Of a stretch of 23,788 nt of DNA, positions 1,394 through 22,710 are shown piece after piece. A model generated the notes under the pieces. It was not told the DNA's origin. It worked only from the letters and a program-made list of their open reading frames with translations, and did not search any database. The stretch lies in sequence record OR670332; one strand, 5' to 3'. Every line of letters begins with the position of its first letter. Position 1 is the first letter of the stretch. A program made the translations under genes and the position numbers. The stretch is from Shigella phage fPSFA.

Positions 1394-3421
1394 GGATAAG
1401 GTGTAGGTTACGTAAGTCCCGTCTGGTTTCTTGGCGAGGATTCTCAGCACCCCATCACTTCCAAAGAAAAAGCCTATAGATGAGTTATGTTCTAAAGCAC
1501 TTTCTGGTAATTGTAAAGACGCAACAGGTATGCTCATGTGCTTAAAGCCTAAGCGGTTAAGCTGCATCTCACCCACACGCTCCCCTCCCTGGATTGCCGA
1601 AAGCTTGACAATACTAGCTTCATTACCAGGCGATGCTACTTGGCAACTTGCTGTCATAAGTAATGATGGATTTATTGTGCCCCCCATTGCCGGGCGCATA
1701 GCCAGGGTCATGTCGTTATCACCATGCTGTACGTTTATGTTCCCACCCTGAATATCACCAACATACGTACAAAGTATCTTTTTCGTACCAGAACCCGCGC
1801 ACGAAACAGACGATATTTCGGAACCCGGCGCGTATACGGCATACCCTTGTGTAGAGTATGCGTGAATCATCACTCCGCGCAATCTGCTGCCGCCTTCGCA
1901 TGTAAGCTGATTTAGGTTAGTTAAATCCTTGTTTGCACCTATAACTGTTACATTAGTAATATCATTGTTAGTACCCCTGTCGAAAATCCCCTCTTTATGG
2001 GCTTCGTAGGTTACAACATTATCAATGATATTTTTTTGCCCATCCCACCACGCGCCGATACCCATACAGTCACGTGTAATGATATTGCGGATGATGTGCT
2101 GAGTAGGTAAATGGAACCATGGGTACTCAGCAAGAGTGTAATCGTCTACACGTTCGGTTGGCGCCCCCGTGTCAGCATTAACATCAATCCCATCATAATA
2201 ACACTGGATTGTAGTTATATTGTCGAACACCAAACGGTAGTTCCTGGCTGACCGTCCCCCGATTTCATTCTGATATGTCTTAACACCAGATTCGCCAACG
2301 CGATATGATATTAAATCCCTTACCCCTCCATTGTGATCATCACCACCGTCATTTCTGATAAATAAAACTGCAGAACCAGAACCGTATTTTATCTCACCAC
2401 CGACCACCCAGTTACCAGTACCCCATGCGGCTGTTTGATGGTTCTCAAATGTAATACCAGACTCCCAGGCAATAAAATTACGTGGATTTTTTACGAGAAT
2501 ACGATTACAGAGTGTGAACAGATACCCACCAAATGTAGCTTCTGGGTTCTCTACGATGATATTATCGCCGCTCATTATTCGCAAAGTTGCACCAGCAACC
2601 TGATTTTTTACATTATCAGGAAGGTTGGTCCAAATATCTAAATCGTTAACGCTTGGCTTATACCCCTTATCCATCCTTTGGGCTACCGACGCCAGCACCG
2701 TTGATGGGTTAGTCACCCAGTTACCGTTGTCGTCGAATCTATACACCGTGTACGGCGTGGTTTGTGTCTGCATGTGCGGCTGGTTCACAACAGACCCTTC
2801 GCCGAGTTGCTCCCATATTAACATGCCATCACCAATAAACTTCGCTTTACAGTCGATGGTCAGGGTCTTCCCGCCGAAGTTAACGGTCTCATTGTTGCTG
2901 AAGTTGTAATCGCGGTCGATAAGAACACTATCAACAGCGGCATCCGCCAATTGTTGTAACGTAGTAAAGTCAGACAGCTTAACGGAGTACTTAAATTTCT
3001 TATCCGCTTCCGCACGGAAGGTGATGTCCCCAAAAGCTACCCAAGCAGAATCAGAAATGCCACCGGTTGTTAGAGGGGTAGACGCCGCGGGGATAACTTT
3101 CGGCAGGGAGCCACGCCATGCGTAATAATTACCGTCCCCGCCATCTTCTTTCGGCCAAAGAACCGCTTTATTGGCGTCGTTAATTCCCAGGGTTCCGCCG
3201 GTTGTGAAGTTAAAAGACGCCGGAGAGAAACCGGCGTCACGCAAGACCGCGGGCAGCGTCTTCTGCGTCTGCCCGGTTACCTGGTTAGTAGCGTAGTCGA
3301 TATCTGCGCCACCCGCTACACCACCCTGTCTGCCGGTGATCACCTCGGCTTCGAAAATCTGGTGTTTTTTAGCTACCTGTAAATCGTAAAGTGACAATAC
3401 ATCACCGCAACCACTAGACAT
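1391..3421 (-). CDS. tailspike protein, P22-like endorhamnosidase domain with a distinct N-terminal attachment domain
   Basis: From about residue 136 onward the sequence (AEADKKFKYSVKLSDFTTLQQLADAAVDSVLIDRDYNF...TIDCKAKFIGDG) closely parallels the P22 tailspike receptor-binding/catalytic domain (recalled from memory). ATG at 3421 with AGAGGA 7 nt upstream. Confidence 0.9.
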   Translation of the reverse strand: MSSGCGDVLSLYDLQVAKKHQIFEAEVITGRQGGVAGGADIDYATNQVTGQTQKTLPAVLRDAGFSPASFNFTTGGTLGINDANKAVLWPKEDGGDGNYYAWRGSLPKVIPAASTPLTTGGISDSAWVAFGDITFRAEADKKFKYSVKLSDFTTLQQLADAAVDSVLIDRDYNFSNNETVNFGGKTLTIDCKAKFIGDGMLIWEQLGEGSVVNQPHMQTQTTPYTVYRFDDNGNWVTNPSTVLASVAQRMDKGYKPSVNDLDIWTNLPDNVKNQVAGATLRIMSGDNIIVENPEATFGGYLFTLCNRILVKNPRNFIAWESGITFENHQTAAWGTGNWVVGGEIKYGSGSAVLFIRNDGGDDHNGGVRDLISYRVGESGVKTYQNEIGGRSARNYRLVFDNITTIQCYYDGIDVNADTGAPTERVDDYTLAEYPWFHLPTQHIIRNIITRDCMGIGAWWDGQKNIIDNVVTYEAHKEGIFDRGTNNDITNVTVIGANKDLTNLNQLTCEGGSRLRGVMIHAYSTQGYAVYAPGSEISSVSCAGSGTKKILCTYVGDIQGGNINVQHGDNDMTLAMRPAMGGTINPSLLMTASCQVASPGNEASIVKLSAIQGGERVGEMQLNRLGFKHMSIPVASLQLPESALEHNSSIGFFFGSDGVLRILAKKPDGTYVTYTLS

Positions 3422-3433
3422 ATGACTATCCTC

Positions 3434-5992
3434 TTAGTTAAAACCGTTATCGAATCCGCTGGAGAACGCACGACCGAAAGGAGGCACGTTGTCGAACTTA
3501 TAGAAATCCTTGTCATAGTTAAACCCGGTTATTTTGACTGTTCTGTCATCGCCGGGGTCTACCGTAGAAACAAGAATCATCTGAGCATTATGCCTTGCTT
3601 CGTTGCCGAATGAAAATTCAGTTTTCAGGGCGCTATTACCCGTGTAAATGGCTTCCTGCGGTACAGAAGTCATAATCACCTGCCTGTCGTGCGCTCCAGG
3701 GACTACATTAACACTTTGCACGCCGCCGTCACGTAACTTGAGAATCAAAGAATGGTCATCTCCCGAGGTGAACTTAACTGGTTGTGACAGTTCTACGGTG
3801 AGCCCGTTTACCGCGGTTACGTAGCCGTCGTAGGTCGCCATACGTGAACCCTTAACCACACTAATGGCACGATTCGGAAGGGCAAAAATACCCTCTTCAG
3901 TGGCGGTAAACGACACCGAAATTTTCTTTAAAATGTTCTTCTGGTGGCGACGGTTTGCCGCCCAGAAAGCCTGCTTATAGTTGCGGATTCCTTTTGAGTC
4001 GTAAGTCTCCGTTTTAAGGCCCCCGGTTTCGGGTATGGTTATAGTCTCTTTGACGTTCGTCTTAGGGTCTATGTACGAGAATTTAAGGCTGTCAAAAACC
4101 TGAGCATCGTTAAAGGTTCTGGTCCATTTTTCGGAAGTACCAGCCTTGCTTCGGTGGGTGAACACCATCTCAGGGCCCATGCGAGGGCGTTCAAAATCGA
4201 GAAGGATATCCGCCCCACGCCTATATGGAGTACAGAAGATAGCGTCGGCTATAGTACTAACTATATCCTGCATAGTGGTTTTATAGTCATCAAACGTGTA
4301 ACAAAATTCTCCGGCCTGTTTGTCGCCAAAATACGCTTCGACCTCGTTCTGCACGGCAAGTAACTTATCCATGTTGCGTACTGTCAGGTTTAAACCGCCC
4401 ACATCTGGGTCACGCGCCAGGCGGATGAGGGATTGTACAGCCTGTGTATTAGGTGTCATCGTATCTTCGAAAACACCGTTACCGAGGTATTTGTACACCA
4501 TTTCAGTAGCAATCATACGCAACTGCGGTTGCTTTACTTCCGCAGCACGGGGGGTCTGCTTGCGCATCGAGTGTACTGTTGTTCTGTTGCCGTAGTGTGG
4601 GGTGTTGTCACGTGTTTGCCCGTATAAGTTAACGTACGTTATCTCATCGACTACAGACCCCTCGAAATTAAAGTCCAGGTCTGTTACCCTTCTGGCGCGC
4701 ACCCGCACCCGTGACACAACCGGCAGGTCGGCGTAAATAGTGACGCCGTTGTAGTCCGGTGTACGCCCGGACACAGTTCCTTGCGCAGTATATATCGGTC
4801 CGTAAGGAGTGCTGTTTTCATCGAGCAATTGATACTGTATTTCGGCGGTTACAGACGCCAGTGTTTTCGATTTGCCGTTGTCTTTATACATGCCGTTCGC
4901 GGCGGCGATATTGGCGACTATACGCTCAACCTCGGTACGGTTTATTGAAACCCAATCGGTTAATGTTTTCTCATACGTGTTGTCTGGTTGCAGCGAGGCC
5001 TCTCCATCACCGCGGAAAAATGAACCGGGTCTTATTTCTTGCCACCGCCCGATAAGGCCGCCAGGCACGATAAAGGTAACGGCCCCTTCGGATACGCTTA
5101 ACACCTGATACCCACCGCCGGATAGGTCGACGTCCGTATTTGTCCACGCTGACACCAGCGAAAATGTATCATTAGGCACCAGTACCCCAGAAAAATCCGA
5201 ACCACCTGTTGGGTCATATATCGTGCCAATGTTTCCGGACAAAGACGGATACCCGGACATGTAAGAGAAAGAAATGCCCAGGCCGTTGGGTGCTTTCAGA
5301 ACCACGCCGTCTACTTCGTTAGATTCTACGGTGATATACAGGCCCTGCTCTATGGGGTCTCCGACCATGACCTGGGGTGTCGATGTGTTATTGGGTGATG
5401 TATATGGTGCGTACACGGCAACCGACGTACCTGTTATATCCGATACACGGGTATCCCCGTCCGTTATACCTTCCGGGTGTATGTCGAGGTAGCCGCGCCC
5501 GGCGTCGTAATAACCGTACTCTACAATTTTACCGGCGGCGTTAAACACCTTATAAGTAGTCATAAGGTTATTAGGGATGGTTTGCACCGTCCCGCAGATG
5601 TCATAACTGCGCTCGTAAGGGCGTGCCTTGTTGTTACGGTCGGTGAGACTGTTGTTCGGGGAATCCGCCTGCGAGTTCGCCAGGTTAGAGGACGCCCCTT
5701 TCACGGATGGTGATAGTAGTTTCGCTAGCGGTTTAAGGATAACGCTAAAAATCTTCATGACGCCTTTAATAGCGCCACCACCGGCAGATTCCACAATGTG
5801 GAAAGTCGCGTTTTCTTTCAGTGCTTCGAAGTCTTCTGTTACATCGTTATCTTCTCCGATTTCGTCGATGAAAACGCGAACCGGCACCCCATCGGGAACG
5901 TGGTTCACGACGAAGTTCATCGGATTATCGCGATATCGTTTAACGTCAAATGTGCCGTCTTCGTTACGGGTATAGTGGATTACTAGCGCCAA
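3434..5992 (-). CDS. tail tip / host specificity protein (lambda J-like central fibre), 852 aa
   Basis: Large ORF immediately downstream of the M/L/K-like genes and upstream of the tailspike. Apparent TTG start at 5992 with GGAG 8 nt upstream; first ATG is at residue 25. Call is by size and position. Confidence 0.55.
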   Translation of the reverse strand: MALVIHYTRNEDGTFDVKRYRDNPMNFVVNHVPDGVPVRVFIDEIGEDNDVTEDFEALKENATFHIVESAGGGAIKGVMKIFSVILKPLAKLLSPSVKGASSNLANSQADSPNNSLTDRNNKARPYERSYDICGTVQTIPNNLMTTYKVFNAAGKIVEYGYYDAGRGYLDIHPEGITDGDTRVSDITGTSVAVYAPYTSPNNTSTPQVMVGDPIEQGLYITVESNEVDGVVLKAPNGLGISFSYMSGYPSLSGNIGTIYDPTGGSDFSGVLVPNDTFSLVSAWTNTDVDLSGGGYQVLSVSEGAVTFIVPGGLIGRWQEIRPGSFFRGDGEASLQPDNTYEKTLTDWVSINRTEVERIVANIAAANGMYKDNGKSKTLASVTAEIQYQLLDENSTPYGPIYTAQGTVSGRTPDYNGVTIYADLPVVSRVRVRARRVTDLDFNFEGSVVDEITYVNLYGQTRDNTPHYGNRTTVHSMRKQTPRAAEVKQPQLRMIATEMVYKYLGNGVFEDTMTPNTQAVQSLIRLARDPDVGGLNLTVRNMDKLLAVQNEVEAYFGDKQAGEFCYTFDDYKTTMQDIVSTIADAIFCTPYRRGADILLDFERPRMGPEMVFTHRSKAGTSEKWTRTFNDAQVFDSLKFSYIDPKTNVKETITIPETGGLKTETYDSKGIRNYKQAFWAANRRHQKNILKKISVSFTATEEGIFALPNRAISVVKGSRMATYDGYVTAVNGLTVELSQPVKFTSGDDHSLILKLRDGGVQSVNVVPGAHDRQVIMTSVPQEAIYTGNSALKTEFSFGNEARHNAQMILVSTVDPGDDRTVKITGFNYDKDFYKFDNVPPFGRAFSSGFDNGFN

Positions 5993-20379: not shown

Positions 20380-22239
20380 CTATTCCTCTTTCAGATAATC
20401 GGCAACACGCTTATCGAGTTCCGCCATCTCTTTAAGAGTTAACGGACGCCCGAATCCGTCTACCGATATTACACGAAATTCTTCCGGGGTTATCCCACTA
20501 TTACGAAAAATCTTACCCCGAACAGGGCCGAGGGCTTCGTCCTGAAACCACGCCGGTTGCTGCTTGAGGAATTCGTAGTAGGTCGTGTCGGCGCTTACCT
20601 GCTGACCTCCATCTGCACCCCTGGCCGCCCGTTTCGCGCCCTTATCAAGGAAGTCAAATTCGGAACTAATTACCGGAGCGGTTGTTGAGCGACAGTTATG
20701 TGCTATAATTCCATTTGCAAGATACCAGTTCTGTTCATTTTCGAGGTTATAAACATGCCCGCAAAAATCAGCTTCACTAAAGACCAAATCGACAACATCA
20801 TCAAGCTCTACACCGACGGCGTCGGACCAGTTGAAATCGGAAAGATTATCGGCGTTTCGTGTAGCCCAGTCATACGCGTTCTCAGAGAGAACGGCGTTAC
20901 TATTCGCGGAGGCAGCGACGCTATGTTTATCAGAATGGCTAAAGCTACCCCCGAGGAGCGCCTCGCGCTCTCCGCCGCAGCGCATGAAGCCGCCCGAGGG
21001 AGAAAGGCCGACCATGCCGAACTGCTTCGCAGGGCCAAAGCCAGGGAGGGGGGCATCAACGCTGGCAGCCACTGGGAGTTCCTTGTCAACGATTTGCTTA
21101 TTCAGTCTGGACTTGACTTTATCCCAGGAAAGGCTGTCGACAAGTACAATCTCGACTTCGCCGTCGGTTCCGTCGCCGTGGAAGTCTTCGGGGGAGGTTG
21201 GGCTTGTACTGACCGCCGCCGGATTGGCCGCTACATTAGCCGCACTAAACAAATCGGAGAACTTGGCTACAACGTTGTGTTCCTTATGCTTGAGAGAGAG
21301 CGTAGCGTCCTTAGCGCACACGAGCTTGTCACCTACATTGAGAAGGCCAGAAGCAACCCAACCACTGGTAGTCAATACTTGGTGATTTGGGGTGATAGAC
21401 AAGGTGCGACCGGACTTTGTAGAGACATAGACTATAGTGCCTTTGTACGCCCTTTTAAAAATGTTAGAAACAGGGCTACCGGTAGATACTACAGTGTCCC
21501 CAAGTAAACAATTAGGATGGGCCGGCGGCAGCGGCCCTTTTCCTATTTCGTACTGCATAGAATCGCGCGACCGGCAAACAGCCGAAGTACGGGAATCAAG
21601 GGTAGATACCCACTCATATTTCGTGATGATATCGTCGTTCTGAGCGTAAACCTGTTGCCGTGCTTCGTTGGATACGTGCGCCAGCGCTGTCCGGATAACG
21701 GTTGCAGCGTTACGCTCGGAGATATCGGCCAGACCACCGGGCCCAACAACGTTCTTAACTATCTGCCGCGTGGTCATACCCTGTACGAACCCAGACTTAA
21801 CCCCCATCACCAGGCGATTCACCTCGGTTTGCCGCCAGCCATTCATTAGCGAAACAAAATCAACCGGTTTTTCGCTTAGTTCAAGTGGCGCGAAAGTCGC
21901 AGCGGCCCACACCTGCTCCGCAGCCGGTGTTACAAAGTTAGCATTAACGTTGGTCGACAATGTTTTTACATTCCAGTTAACCTCATAGTCGGAAAGCTCA
22001 CGGGCGTCGGCCAGTAGCTTCTCATACCACCCGGACGTAATTCCGTTCAGTGCTTGCTCAAGTTCCCGCAGCATGATGGTGAGTCTCGCTGCCGTTCTGC
22101 TGTCATCGCCAAACAGCAGCACCTGTCGCTTAACCTCATCACGCATTTGCGAGATAAATGGTGCCAGGTCTTTTACTTCGCTACTGGCGTTACGTTGCAG
22201 CAATATCTGGTGGCTGATAATCGATTCTAAAAGACTCAT
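20380..22239 (-). CDS. head morphogenesis protein (SPP1 gp7 / Mu F-like), intein-containing precursor
   Basis: N-extein ends ...TLDSRTSAVCRSRDSMQYEIGKGPLPPAHPN and the C-extein begins CRSTT, which restores the family's HPNC-type motif after excision of 272 aa. AGGAGG RBS upstream. Confidence 0.75.
   Translation of the reverse strand: MSLLESIISHQILLQRNASSEVKDLAPFISQMRDEVKRQVLLFGDDSRTAARLTIMLRELEQALNGITSGWYEKLLADARELSDYEVNWNVKTLSTNVNANFVTPAAEQVWAAATFAPLELSEKPVDFVSLMNGWRQTEVNRLVMGVKSGFVQGMTTRQIVKNVVGPGGLADISERNAATVIRTALAHVSNEARQQVYAQNDDIITKYEWVSTLDSRTSAVCRSRDSMQYEIGKGPLPPAHPNCLLGDTVVSTGSPVSNIFKRAYKGTIVYVSTKSGRTLSITPNHQVLTTSGWVASGLLNVGDKLVCAKDATLSLKHKEHNVVAKFSDLFSAANVAANPAAVSTSPTSPEDFHGDGTDGEVEIVLVDSLSWDKVKSRLNKQIVDKELPVAASVDAPLPGFGPAKQFGMVGLSPSGGFMRCGGEREALLGGSFSHSDKHSVAASANSNAVLSENAYDWATRNADNLSDFNWSDAVGVELDDVVDLVFSEADFCGHVYNLENEQNWYLANGIIAHNCRSTTAPVISSEFDFLDKGAKRAARGADGGQQVSADTTYYEFLKQQPAWFQDEALGPVRGKIFRNSGITPEEFRVISVDGFGRPLTLKEMAELDKRVADYLKEE
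20682..20709 (+). promoter_or_regulatory. putative extended -10 promoter for the antisense intein-nested gene
   Basis: TGcTATAAT at 20701-20709, with TTGTTG at 20682-20687 and a 16-nt spacer. Confidence 0.45.
20695..21510 (-). mobile_element. intein (Hint domain) inserted in the head morphogenesis protein
   Basis: Block A CLLGDTVV at the N-terminus, block B SITPNHQVLT, and C-terminal blocks VYNLENEQNWYLANGIIAHN followed by a +1 Cys. In frame with the host gene. Confidence 0.75.
20755..21507 (+). CDS. HTH + DUF559/Vsr-like (PD-(D/E)xK fold) endonuclease-like protein, encoded antisense within the intein
   Basis: ATG at 20755 with GAGG 8 nt upstream. N-terminal HTH (DQIDNIIKLYTDGVGPVEIGKIIGVSCSPVIRVLRENGV). 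DUF559-like core YNLDFAVGSVAVEVFGGGW...TDRRRIGRY...LGYNVVFL. Translation verified by hand. Confidence 0.65.
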   Translation: MPAKISFTKDQIDNIIKLYTDGVGPVEIGKIIGVSCSPVIRVLRENGVTIRGGSDAMFIRMAKATPEERLALSAAAHEAARGRKADHAELLRRAKAREGGINAGSHWEFLVNDLLIQSGLDFIPGKAVDKYNLDFAVGSVAVEVFGGGWACTDRRRIGRYISRTKQIGELGYNVVFLMLERERSVLSAHELVTYIEKARSNPTTGSQYLVIWGDRQGATGLCRDIDYSAFVRPFKNVRNRATGRYYSVPK

Positions 22240-22341: not shown

Positions 22342-22710
22342 ATGGGTATGTATACGAAGTTATGGTTTGATGCTGACTTAAAACATAACGTAGATGAAAT
22401 TAACCTGCGCGCATTGGAGTACCTATTTGTCGGTGGTGACGTCCCTGATGTATTACCGTGCCACCCATTTTTCACACTAGAAAGATGGTCGTACATGTTT
22501 TATTCCCCTGCGTACTCGGGAGATGCCGTCACGGTTAAACTTGGCGATTACTACAACCATGTATCGGCGCATATAGAGGTTAAAAATTACTGCGGCGAGA
22601 TAGAGAGTTTCCTTGATTGGGTACGACCACTCTTGGACGTGGAGAAGGGGACTTGCATAGGGTGGAAATGGTATGAAGGAGACGATAACCCAATCCTGAT
22701 ATACGCGTAA
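22342..22710 (+). CDS. hypothetical protein (122 aa, aromatic-rich), moron between portal and head morphogenesis genes
   Basis: ORF occupies a gap with no minus-strand gene. AGGAGA RBS 7 nt upstream and a terminator directly downstream. Confidence 0.55.
   Translation: MGMYTKLWFDADLKHNVDEINLRALEYLFVGGDVPDVLPCHPFFTLERWSYMFYSPAYSGDAVTVKLGDYYNHVSAHIEVKNYCGEIESFLDWVRPLLDVEKGTCIGWKWYEGDDNPILIYA

Follow-up and report, generated by a model that had tools for sequence, protein, structure and literature searches.

Antisense Vsr-like homing endonucleases have recently been described in the MuF-like minor capsid inteins of actinophages (Gosselin, Arsenault & Gogarten, bioRxiv 10.1101/2025.01.02.630785), and the supplementary table of that preprint lists Vivi2 gp14, Angelicage gp15, Affeca gp15, Fosterous gp12 and Sejanus gp8 as 'VSR -1 ORF'. 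Here we analysed a 23,788-nucleotide (nt) stretch of DNA from Shigella phage fPSFA (sequence record OR670332; hereafter the window), by its sequence a Jerseyvirus-like phage (Guernseyvirinae), in which an intein in a Mu F-like head morphogenesis gene carries on its opposite strand a 250-residue open reading frame (ORF) for a putative homing endonuclease, called HEN below. An earlier note on this DNA knew of no described precedent for such an arrangement, a statement overtaken by the preprint, which lists homologous MuF antisense inteins; the window locus belongs to a very recently described, known kind.

As in the actinophage cases, the MuF intein of the window is unsplit and a separate antisense ORF lies between its splicing blocks, the in-frame region has no recognisable structure and the antisense product is Vsr-like, and the actinophage homologs of the window ORF are exactly the phages of the 'VSR -1 ORF' entries. 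Whereas the preprint covers PhagesDB actinophages only, the window case occurs in Guernseyvirinae of Salmonella, Escherichia and Pantoea, and relatives of its ORF also occur in Vibrio, Klebsiella and Aggregatibacter phages and on 236 IMG/VR contigs. The antisense ORFs are typically placed outside the splicing domain (bioRxiv 10.1101/2025.01.02.630785), whereas the window ORF covers intein residues 3-252 and overlaps blocks A, B and F. The portion of the preprint's main text considered here makes no mention of frame-switching selection, signals in blocks F and G, a free-standing relative or a His-to-Ala change. No report of an enterobacterial intein with an antisense homing endonuclease gene (HEG) was found in the literature searched, and for Jerseyviruses just an 'intein-containing capsid morphogenesis protein' has been noted (PMC8425127). 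What appears to be new, then, is that the arrangement occurs in enterobacterial phages and in many others that are non-actinobacterial, that the ORF is nested totally and extends across the splicing blocks, that the selection signature switches strands, that expression signals are built into blocks F and G and the stop into block A, that a free-standing relative stands beside MuF, and that the clade of the window has lost the general-base His.

Three further systems bear comparison. Antisense LAGLIDADG inteins (Synechocystis DnaX and Chloroflexus SpoVR-like; Gorbalenya 1998, Gogarten 2002), compared here through their citation in bioRxiv 10.1101/2025.01.02.630785, likewise have a homing endonuclease ORF opposite an intact intein, but their nuclease family differs from that of the window. 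I-Bth0305I is the prototype of the EDxHD (Vsr-like) homing endonucleases, and its H213 has been taken as the counterpart of the general base in Vsr (Taylor et al. 2011, PMC3239194). HEN shares with it the Vsr-like fold, an N-terminal helix-turn-helix (HTH)/NUMOD region, the metal-binding Asp and a conserved acidic residue, whereas I-Bth0305I is encoded in the sense orientation in a group I intron of recA, is ~16% identical to HEN and carries H213 where HEN has Ala150, a departure of the HEN clade from the defining motif of the family. Fractured genes (Dassa et al. 2009, PMC2677866), in which a free-standing HEG of the Vsr-like or GIY-YIG type separates the two parts of a split intein, resemble the window in having a Vsr-like HEG in the endonuclease position between the splicing regions, phage-like DNA and expression signals of its own. 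In fractured genes, host gene and intein are broken into two ORFs that splice in trans, and the HEG has the parent orientation with an overlap of 6-69 base pairs (bp) with the downstream gene, whereas the window has an unbroken host ORF that an antisense HEG overlaps over its entire length.

A free-standing HEG of Acinetobacter Obolenskvirus phages belongs to the same protein family as HEN and lies beside the same target gene, MuF, on the opposite strand. Free-standing phage HEGs insert beside their target gene; the Acinetobacter HEG, unlike the window element, has neither intein nor overlap and is probably ancestral or escaped.

The antisense gene and selection along the intein

The plus ORF was confirmed as a real protein-coding gene under purifying selection, nested antisense in the intein. 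HEN (20755-21507, plus strand; 250 residues and TAA), recognised by its open frame, homologs, antisense omega and AlphaFold2 (AF2) fold, starts with the ATG at 20755, stops with the TAA at 21505-21507 and lies wholly within the intein (20695-21510, minus strand), spanning intein residues 3-252 with its codons exactly opposite intein codons, so that HEN residue i faces intein residue 253-i. The product contains YNLDFAVGSVAVEVFGGGWACTDRRR (residues 131-156) and LGYNVVFL (residues 170-177), and phage PK2 annotates the ORF as hypothetical protein XRA40007.1. The features listed in the earlier note, namely TGCTATAAT, GAGG, the ATG, the 250-residue product and its motifs, were all found as described, and its proposal of a gene antisense within the intein was borne out, both frames being open and codon-aligned and the antisense frame being under selection. 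We count the ORF as a gene because of four independent lines of evidence, namely a switch of selection along the intein, the predicted structure, the homologs and a free-standing relative, of which the comparative evidence is decisive.

Substitutions among eight Guernseyvirinae alleles fell on codon positions 1/2/3 as 121/75/348 in the N-extein and 21/12/118 in the C-extein. Over residues 69-238 of the intein, changes numbered 120 at sense position 1, the third position of the antisense codon, versus 53 at sense position 3, and at both intein ends the pattern reverted to the sense-frame type. In the intein centre, Nei-Gojobori estimation gave a sense omega of 0.9-1.4 and an antisense omega of 0.12-0.24; the corresponding values were 0.16-0.46 versus 0.39-0.93 in the N-terminal splicing region, and the sense omega was 0.03-0.09 in the C-terminal splicing region; over the two ends together (N-terminal 68 and C-terminal 34 residues), the sense omega was 0.03-0.46 and the antisense omega 0.4-1.5.

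When the synonymous codons of the intein were resampled with the phage's own usage, the antisense frame came out open for 250 codons or more in 6 of 20000 trials, and both frames are open in relatives down to ~30% identity. An AF2 model of HEN, built from an alignment of 17 sequences, reached a mean pLDDT (predicted local distance difference test) score of 86.6, with 17 homologs found at 31-52% identity. Outside all splicing blocks, F110-H111 of the intein is invariant and mirrors E143-V142 of HEN. The free-standing homolog, found in Acinetobacter phages IME285 (455-1348 of L014, plus strand) and BUCT629 (2306-3199 of L108, plus strand), aligned with HEN over 258 columns (hhalign probability 99.7%, E 7.6e-27) and is the lone plus gene in a minus-strand structural module. 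Its neighbour is an intein-less MuF gene (PF04233, E 6e-12) ending ...PMCKCRAKL, which it follows directly on the downstream side, on the opposite strand and in convergent orientation, and the strand facing the homolog showed no open frame of 180 codons or more. It may be an ancestral or escaped state of the element.

The putative promoter (20682-20709, plus strand), proposed from the sequence and comparative codon choice, comprises a weak -35 TTGTTG (20682-20687), which lies in C-extein codons, and an extended -10 TGCTATAAT (20701-20709), which is the antisense of block G Ile-Ile-Ala. TGnTATAAT is kept in Salmonella, Vibrio and low-GC (guanine plus cytosine) metagenomic homologs, and block G Ile-Ile-Ala/Thr, read in antisense, supplies the -10 box of the low-GC lineages. 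Ile-Ile is written there as ATT-ATA, giving TATAAT, in 19 of 21 distinct block-G contexts, against ~9.5% expected from the Ile codons of the same ORFs (339 ATT, 318 ATC, 210 ATA), an excess that is supportive and not proof, the block-G sequences being related to each other; TG occupies the extended -10 position in 16 of these 21 Ile-Ile contexts. This codon-level conservation gives indirect support to a promoter function for HEN.

The Shine-Dalgarno (SD) sequence and start (20743-20757, plus strand) consist of GAGG at 20743-20746, 8 nt before the ATG at 20755-20757; the SD is the antisense of block F Asn-Leu-Glu/Gln and the start is the antisense of the conserved block-F His (GHVYNLEN). A purine-rich SD-like motif stands 7-8 nt before a start opposite this His in 15 of the 16 other intein-nested homologs shown, the exception being L013, whose chosen start has no SD-like motif. 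The Leu2 TTA codon of the intein, read in antisense, forms the HEN stop, which lies opposite intein residue 2 (Leu TTA/CTA) in 43 of 54 distinct relatives and 9-14 residues in for only four. The antisense ORF is open through the N-terminal Hint region in 50 of the 54; with the ORF open through this whole region, ~64 codons (intein residues 3-66 opposite HEN residues 187-250) are therefore read as true dual coding.

Three other candidate features of this region were rejected. A 269-residue reading from an ATG at 20698 would start within the -10 region without an SD, and 15 comparable homologs start at the position of 20755. A third-frame plus ORF of 184 residues with a TTG start (20831-21385), annotated in PK2, is of low complexity and probably spurious, the listing for the distant homologs scanned having nothing of similar length (at least 150-180 codons). 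A terminator-like hairpin (21519-21537, plus strand), GC-rich with a T run and 12 nt past the HEN stop, falls within the N-extein codons for GPLPPA, is absent from the other intein-bearing and intein-less alleles and was attributed to chance.

The host gene, the intein and the predicted nuclease

The host gene (20380-22239, minus strand) is a Mu F-like head morphogenesis, or minor head, gene whose open reading frame encodes a 619-residue precursor including the intein. This precursor scored 34.8 bits with Phage_Mu_F PF04233 (gathering cut-off 29.6) and 39.3 bits with Intein_splicing PF14890 (gathering cut-off 35.8), and matched PHROG 241 head morphogenesis with E 8e-144, the function that related phages also annotate. 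The host ORF is a single unbroken frame, not split into two genes, as in 79 of 80 IMG/VR loci. In a nucleotide comparison, the 1860-nt region 20380-22239 was matched in 347 phage records, nearly all from Salmonella, of which 57 covered the whole query, and most others among the matches listed represent a 1044-nt allele. Alignment with four intein-less 1044-nt alleles fixed the insertion site at ...PPAHPN↓CRS(S/T)TAP... (the arrow marks the junction), which in the intein-less allele of PVP-SE2 reads ...GCGCACCCTAAC↓TGTCGGTCAAGC.... The N-extein (residues 1-243, ending ...PPAHPN; 21511-22239, minus strand) was delimited by this alignment and the position of Cys1, and the C-extein (CRSTTAP... to the stop; 20380-20694, minus strand) by the alignment. 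By GC content the intein does not stand out as foreign, at 0.516 against 0.52 for the exteins.

The class-1 intein (CLLGDTVV...GIIAHN, 272 residues; 20695-21510, minus strand) begins with Cys1, ends in His-Asn before Cys+1 and is absent exactly from the intein-less alleles. At the HPN↓CRS site all the expected residues are present, namely C1, block B T40-P-N-H43, H271-N272 and Cys+1; T40, N42, H43, H271 and N272 are invariant among intein homologs and P41 nearly so, and the block F/G residues G251, H252, V253, Y254, N255, L256, H271 and N272 are likewise invariant. The N-terminal splicing region (residues 1-66, blocks A and B; 21313-21510, minus strand) lies opposite HEN residues 187-250, and the C-terminal splicing region (residues 234-272, blocks F and G; 20695-20811, minus strand) carries in antisense the HEN -10 box, SD and start. 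An AF2 model of the intein, built from a 10-sequence alignment, had a mean pLDDT of 40.3, with only the Hint strands 8-66 and 234-271 moderately supported; residues 8-66 form beta strands, and pLDDT was 56-72 for residues 21-70. That the intein splices is suggested by its unbroken motifs, by purifying selection on the sense frame at either end and by the fact that the 69 phages carrying it are viable.

Between the splicing regions, the central region (residues 67-233; 20812-21312, minus strand) is a stop-free linker in the sense frame, delimited by low pLDDT and the near-neutral sense omega given above; pLDDT was 23-34 over most of it and below 50 at residues 67-226 and 229-233. A sense-frame endonuclease domain was sought in related inteins and not found. 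The place usual for such a domain is, as the substitutions and the model support, an unconstrained and unfolded linker, in line with the observation of the earlier note that the antisense gene sits where a sense endonuclease usually would.

HEN itself comprises three parts. The N-terminal DNA-binding region (residues 1-100; 20755-21054, plus strand) contains HTH helices at 9-20, 25-32 and 36-45, followed at residues 75-84 by a conserved AAHxAxRG motif in a helical linker. The Vsr-like PD-(D/E)xK nuclease core (residues 105-199; 21067-21351, plus strand) contains the family-invariant residues E108, Y131, N132, D134, V142, E143, G146, G147, W149 and R163. The C-terminal beta-rich extension (residues 200-250 and the stop; 21352-21507, plus strand) has AF2 strands within 207-249 at pLDDT 76-92. 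The family profile of HEN matched 3r3p, a solved homing endonuclease, with E 3.2e-5 over the nuclease core, and its N-terminal part matched HTH proteins (2lvs, 2.4e-5; the PAI subdomain of Sleeping Beauty; resolvase). Among 17 family members, Pfam assigned REase_MTES_1575 PF18741 to 6 (best 6.9e-12), HTH_7 to 7 and DUF559 PF04480 to 1. Profile and model together thus show a predicted architecture like that of I-Bth0305I, in which an N-terminal part of one or two HTH modules precedes a Vsr-like domain at the C-terminus.

An hmmsearch alignment placed D134 at the catalytic D196 of I-Bth0305I and E143 at the acidic residue of its AIEVNG motif, both being invariant in the 17 sequences. The position of the general-base histidine is Ala or Ser in the Jerseyvirus/Vibrio clade; among 63 distinct IMG/VR relatives, GG[GH] is followed by W-H in 51, F-H in 1 and W-A or W-S in 11, the last group being the clade that includes the window phage.

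Probable homing, its proposed mechanism and the alternatives

The intein was present in 69 of the 347 related phage records, always at full length and never miniaturised, and no mini-intein allele lacking the HEG was seen among these 69 records or 80 IMG/VR loci. In a tblastn search with HEN, 95 of 98 matching records covered at least 80% of the query and two partial or broken matches were in unannotated assemblies; the ORF had its full 250 residues in the great majority of ~68 Salmonella and Escherichia carrier records. Between the window and phage dunkel, identity was 97% in the intein but 67% in the N-extein and 88% in the C-extein, and between PK2 and dunkel it was 99.1% in the intein and 68% in the N-extein. 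In 60-nt bins, the identity of window and dunkel rose from 68% to 100% at the N-terminal junction bin and was 78-87% past the C-terminal junction. The exteins of the window are nearest to those of intein-less PVP-SE2 (96.7% and 93.3%), and the dunkel N-extein is nearest to that of intein-less ER18 (87.8%). This sporadic, phylogeny-incongruent and junction-precise pattern indicates homing and shows the intein and the ORF to travel together.

Salmonella phage L223 (L019) combines window-like exteins with a mosaic intein at gene nt 781-1020, the N-terminal third of which is close to the SaI_NFG_5577 type (95-100%) and the remainder of the window type. The mosaic therefore points to recombination between intein variants within the dual-coding zone.

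We propose that the plus ORF is probably the HEG of a composite mobile element, consisting of the intein and its antisense HEG, whose target is the H-x-N↓C site conserved in the Mu F-like head morphogenesis genes of phages; of the three options raised in the earlier note, the intein's homing nuclease is the best, the intein and ORF moving as a unit between divergent exteins. Starting from the gene itself, its fold, its co-inheritance with the intein and the mobility pattern, we infer transcription, translation, cleavage and splicing as follows. Early in infection, host RNA polymerase would start at the extended -10 in the antisense of block G, and the ribosome would use the SD and ATG in the antisense of block F. 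In a co-infecting phage without the intein, the HTH region of HEN would bind the uninterrupted DNA that codes for HPN↓CRS, the Vsr-like domain would cut this allele, and recombinational repair from the intein-carrying genome would copy the 816-bp element. Late in infection, the minus strand would be transcribed and the 619-residue precursor made, from which the Hint domain (residues 1-66 and 234-272) would excise the intein with its 160-residue disordered loop, leaving a functional head protein. Such a cycle of homing and splicing would explain the split of selection along the element, with the sense frame selected at the two ends, the antisense frame in the middle, and stops selected against in both frames throughout.

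Several observations weigh against this proposal. The identity breaks at the junctions could come from ordinary recombination, and the omegas of overlapping frames are coupled and derive from only 8-9 alleles, although the contrast between them is nonetheless large and consistent. Of the promoter claimed in the earlier note, TGnTATAAT kept through biased codon choice stands, but a sigma-70 consensus scan did not call TGCTATAAT, because the -35 is weak. Its assignment of HEN as an HTH protein with a DUF559/Vsr-like nuclease holds at the level of fold and family, by profile and structure, but the protein itself falls below the Pfam DUF559/Vsr thresholds: HEN alone matched no Pfam nuclease family up to an E of 1, scans of the single sequence with Pfam and PHROG gave just weak HTH/DNA-binding matches, and the nuclease assignment is supported by a transitive link through family profile and structure. 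H213, the general base of I-Bth0305I, corresponds to Ala150 of HEN (21202-21204), and the canonical PD-(D/E)xK lysine position is occupied by Phe145. The predicted active site is therefore non-canonical, and catalytic competence is predicted, not assured.

These same residues are the main argument for a domesticated or decaying endonuclease, which would have lost nuclease activity in the Jerseyvirus clade. It would then either bind DNA or regulate, perhaps by means of antisense transcription that opposes the late head gene, or be a relic from a late stage of the homing cycle. With the general-base His replaced by Ala150 (Ala/Ser in 11 of 63 distinct relatives, His in 52), no Lys or His at the ExK position and a well-conserved HTH region, this alternative has evidence in its favour, but we consider it unlikely: the low antisense omega of 0.12-0.24 extends over the nuclease core, and E108, D134, E143, G146, G147, W149 and R163 are invariant. 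The near-complete HEN coverage in 95 of 98 records and in most of the ~68 carriers also speaks against decay, as Leu/Ser changes that are synonymous for the intein create antisense stops, which a relic would gather, and the near-identity of inteins whose exteins are 67% identical favours recent, precise transfer.

A still less probable alternative is that an independent selfish HEG invaded a mini-intein and spreads by itself, cutting inteins without an HEG or a nearby site. Such an origin was proposed by Gosselin et al. (bioRxiv 10.1101/2025.01.02.630785), and both the free-standing homolog beside an intein-less MuF gene and the related units in RtcB and at a second MuF site favour it. Against it, the 69 phage records and 80 IMG/VR loci contained no mini-intein lacking the HEG, and identity breaks at the intein junctions and not at the ORF ends; furthermore, the intein and ORF cannot move apart because the promoter, SD, start and stop of HEN are built from intein blocks G, F and A. 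An independent HEG is thus plausible as an account of origin, not of present behaviour.

Finally, we give almost no credence to the plus ORF being a non-coding antisense artefact, open by chance or codon bias with conservation that mirrors the intein, even though a single open antisense frame in one genome has a chance of 3e-4 to 3e-3, the conservation of the ends does mirror blocks A, B, F and G, and the 184-residue third-frame ORF of the same region looks spurious, as the central sense frame is neutral where the antisense frame is constrained, the Vsr-like fold is confident with profile matches to a solved homing endonuclease, the free-standing homolog has no overlapping gene, and the invariant F110-H111 lies opposite E143-V142, E143 aligning with the acidic residue of AIEVNG in I-Bth0305I.

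Returning to HEN as the nuclease of a composite element, the Ala150 clade is under strong purifying selection and still appears to be mobile, which might reflect a new catalytic arrangement, or spread by binding without canonical cleavage, combined with dual coding; we offer this as a tentative idea that we doubt more than we believe. If it were true, the new arrangement could use E108, R163 or K165 or act as a nickase, ~64 codons would dual-code two folded segments, and the -10, SD, start and stop would be hard-wired into blocks G, F and A.

Distribution among phages and significance

The antisense-in-intein layout, with both strands open, was present in every intein-associated homolog inspected. 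Homologs within an intein of a MuF-like head protein occur on metagenomic contigs L002-L008, whose GC runs from low to actinobacterial, and in Vibrio phage 1.197.A, Gordonia phage Vivi2, Aggregatibacter/Haemophilus phage Aaphi23, Klebsiella phage RCIP0054, Idiomarinaceae phage 1N2-2 and Mycobacterium phage Sejanus; the GC content of metagenomic contigs with the layout is 0.42-0.69. Actinophage tblastn matches of HEN ran from Vivi2 (2e-17) through Angelicage, Affeca and Fosterous to Sejanus (7e-6), each antisense under a MuF or capsid gene. An IMG/VR scan gave 236 loci, of which 80 were kept for a strand check; the minus-strand frame was open across the entire match in 79 of these, all 79 being codon-aligned. 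The junctions read P-P-x-H-x-N↓C...HN↓CR(S/C), and ten sampled host ORFs contained Phage_Mu_F (8/10) and Intein_splicing (9/10). The earlier note had named a conserved sense-strand endonuclease domain in related inteins as evidence that would undo its proposal; none was found in the related inteins. Within the Guernseyvirinae, the intein occurs at 82% nt identity in the minor capsid gene of Pantoea phage AH01 (H143; MZ501269.1 9325-10136), and two Escherichia phage records also hold it, so the element crosses host genera.

Several loci depart from the common layout. In Sejanus gp8 (L015), a homologous unit occupies another MuF-domain site, VWV↓C...HN↓CTIDGKTRPSH, in a MuF-protease fusion. Contig L026 (2761-4287, plus strand) has an intein in an RtcB RNA ligase gene with an antisense Vsr-like ORF (3846-3172), a switch of extein; RtcB is called there as two genes with the frame change just upstream of the intein, and the contig also has a phage-type integrase gene. 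L047 (IMG/VR 3300040801_000142; 2360-5218, minus strand) has a 953-residue head-protein ORF with two Intein_splicing stretches and may represent two inteins in one gene with an antisense ORF in only one. In L084 (2378-5422, minus strand), an open frame with portal PF04860 and MuF domains carries the intein. Next to the host gene, the window has a plus ORF of 122 residues (22342-22710) between the head morphogenesis and portal genes, as does PK2; in dunkel, BPS11Q3, PVP-SE2, SETP7 and MA12 an amidase gene of ~650 nt on the plus strand takes its place, which looks like a module swap beside the intein-bearing gene.

Most Jerseyvirus records examined annotate the head morphogenesis gene alone and omit a real antisense gene, and overlapping hypothetical proteins were annotated only in PK2, PK1 and vB_StyS-sam. 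That gene is probably the engine of a mobile element, which accounts for local mosaicism near the head genes of Jerseyviruses used in therapy. The intein-plus/minus polymorphism of easily grown Salmonella phages makes a tractable system for homing by an antisense HEG, in which a mutation silent for the intein could disable the nuclease. The locus is a clean natural case of full antisense dual coding, with selection seen switching strands along one 816-bp element. With it, a rare and recently described architecture of actinophages is found to reach enterobacterial, Vibrio and Klebsiella phages as well as many uncultured ones, and the conservation of codon register and of start and stop placement shows this architecture to be an old and stable design.

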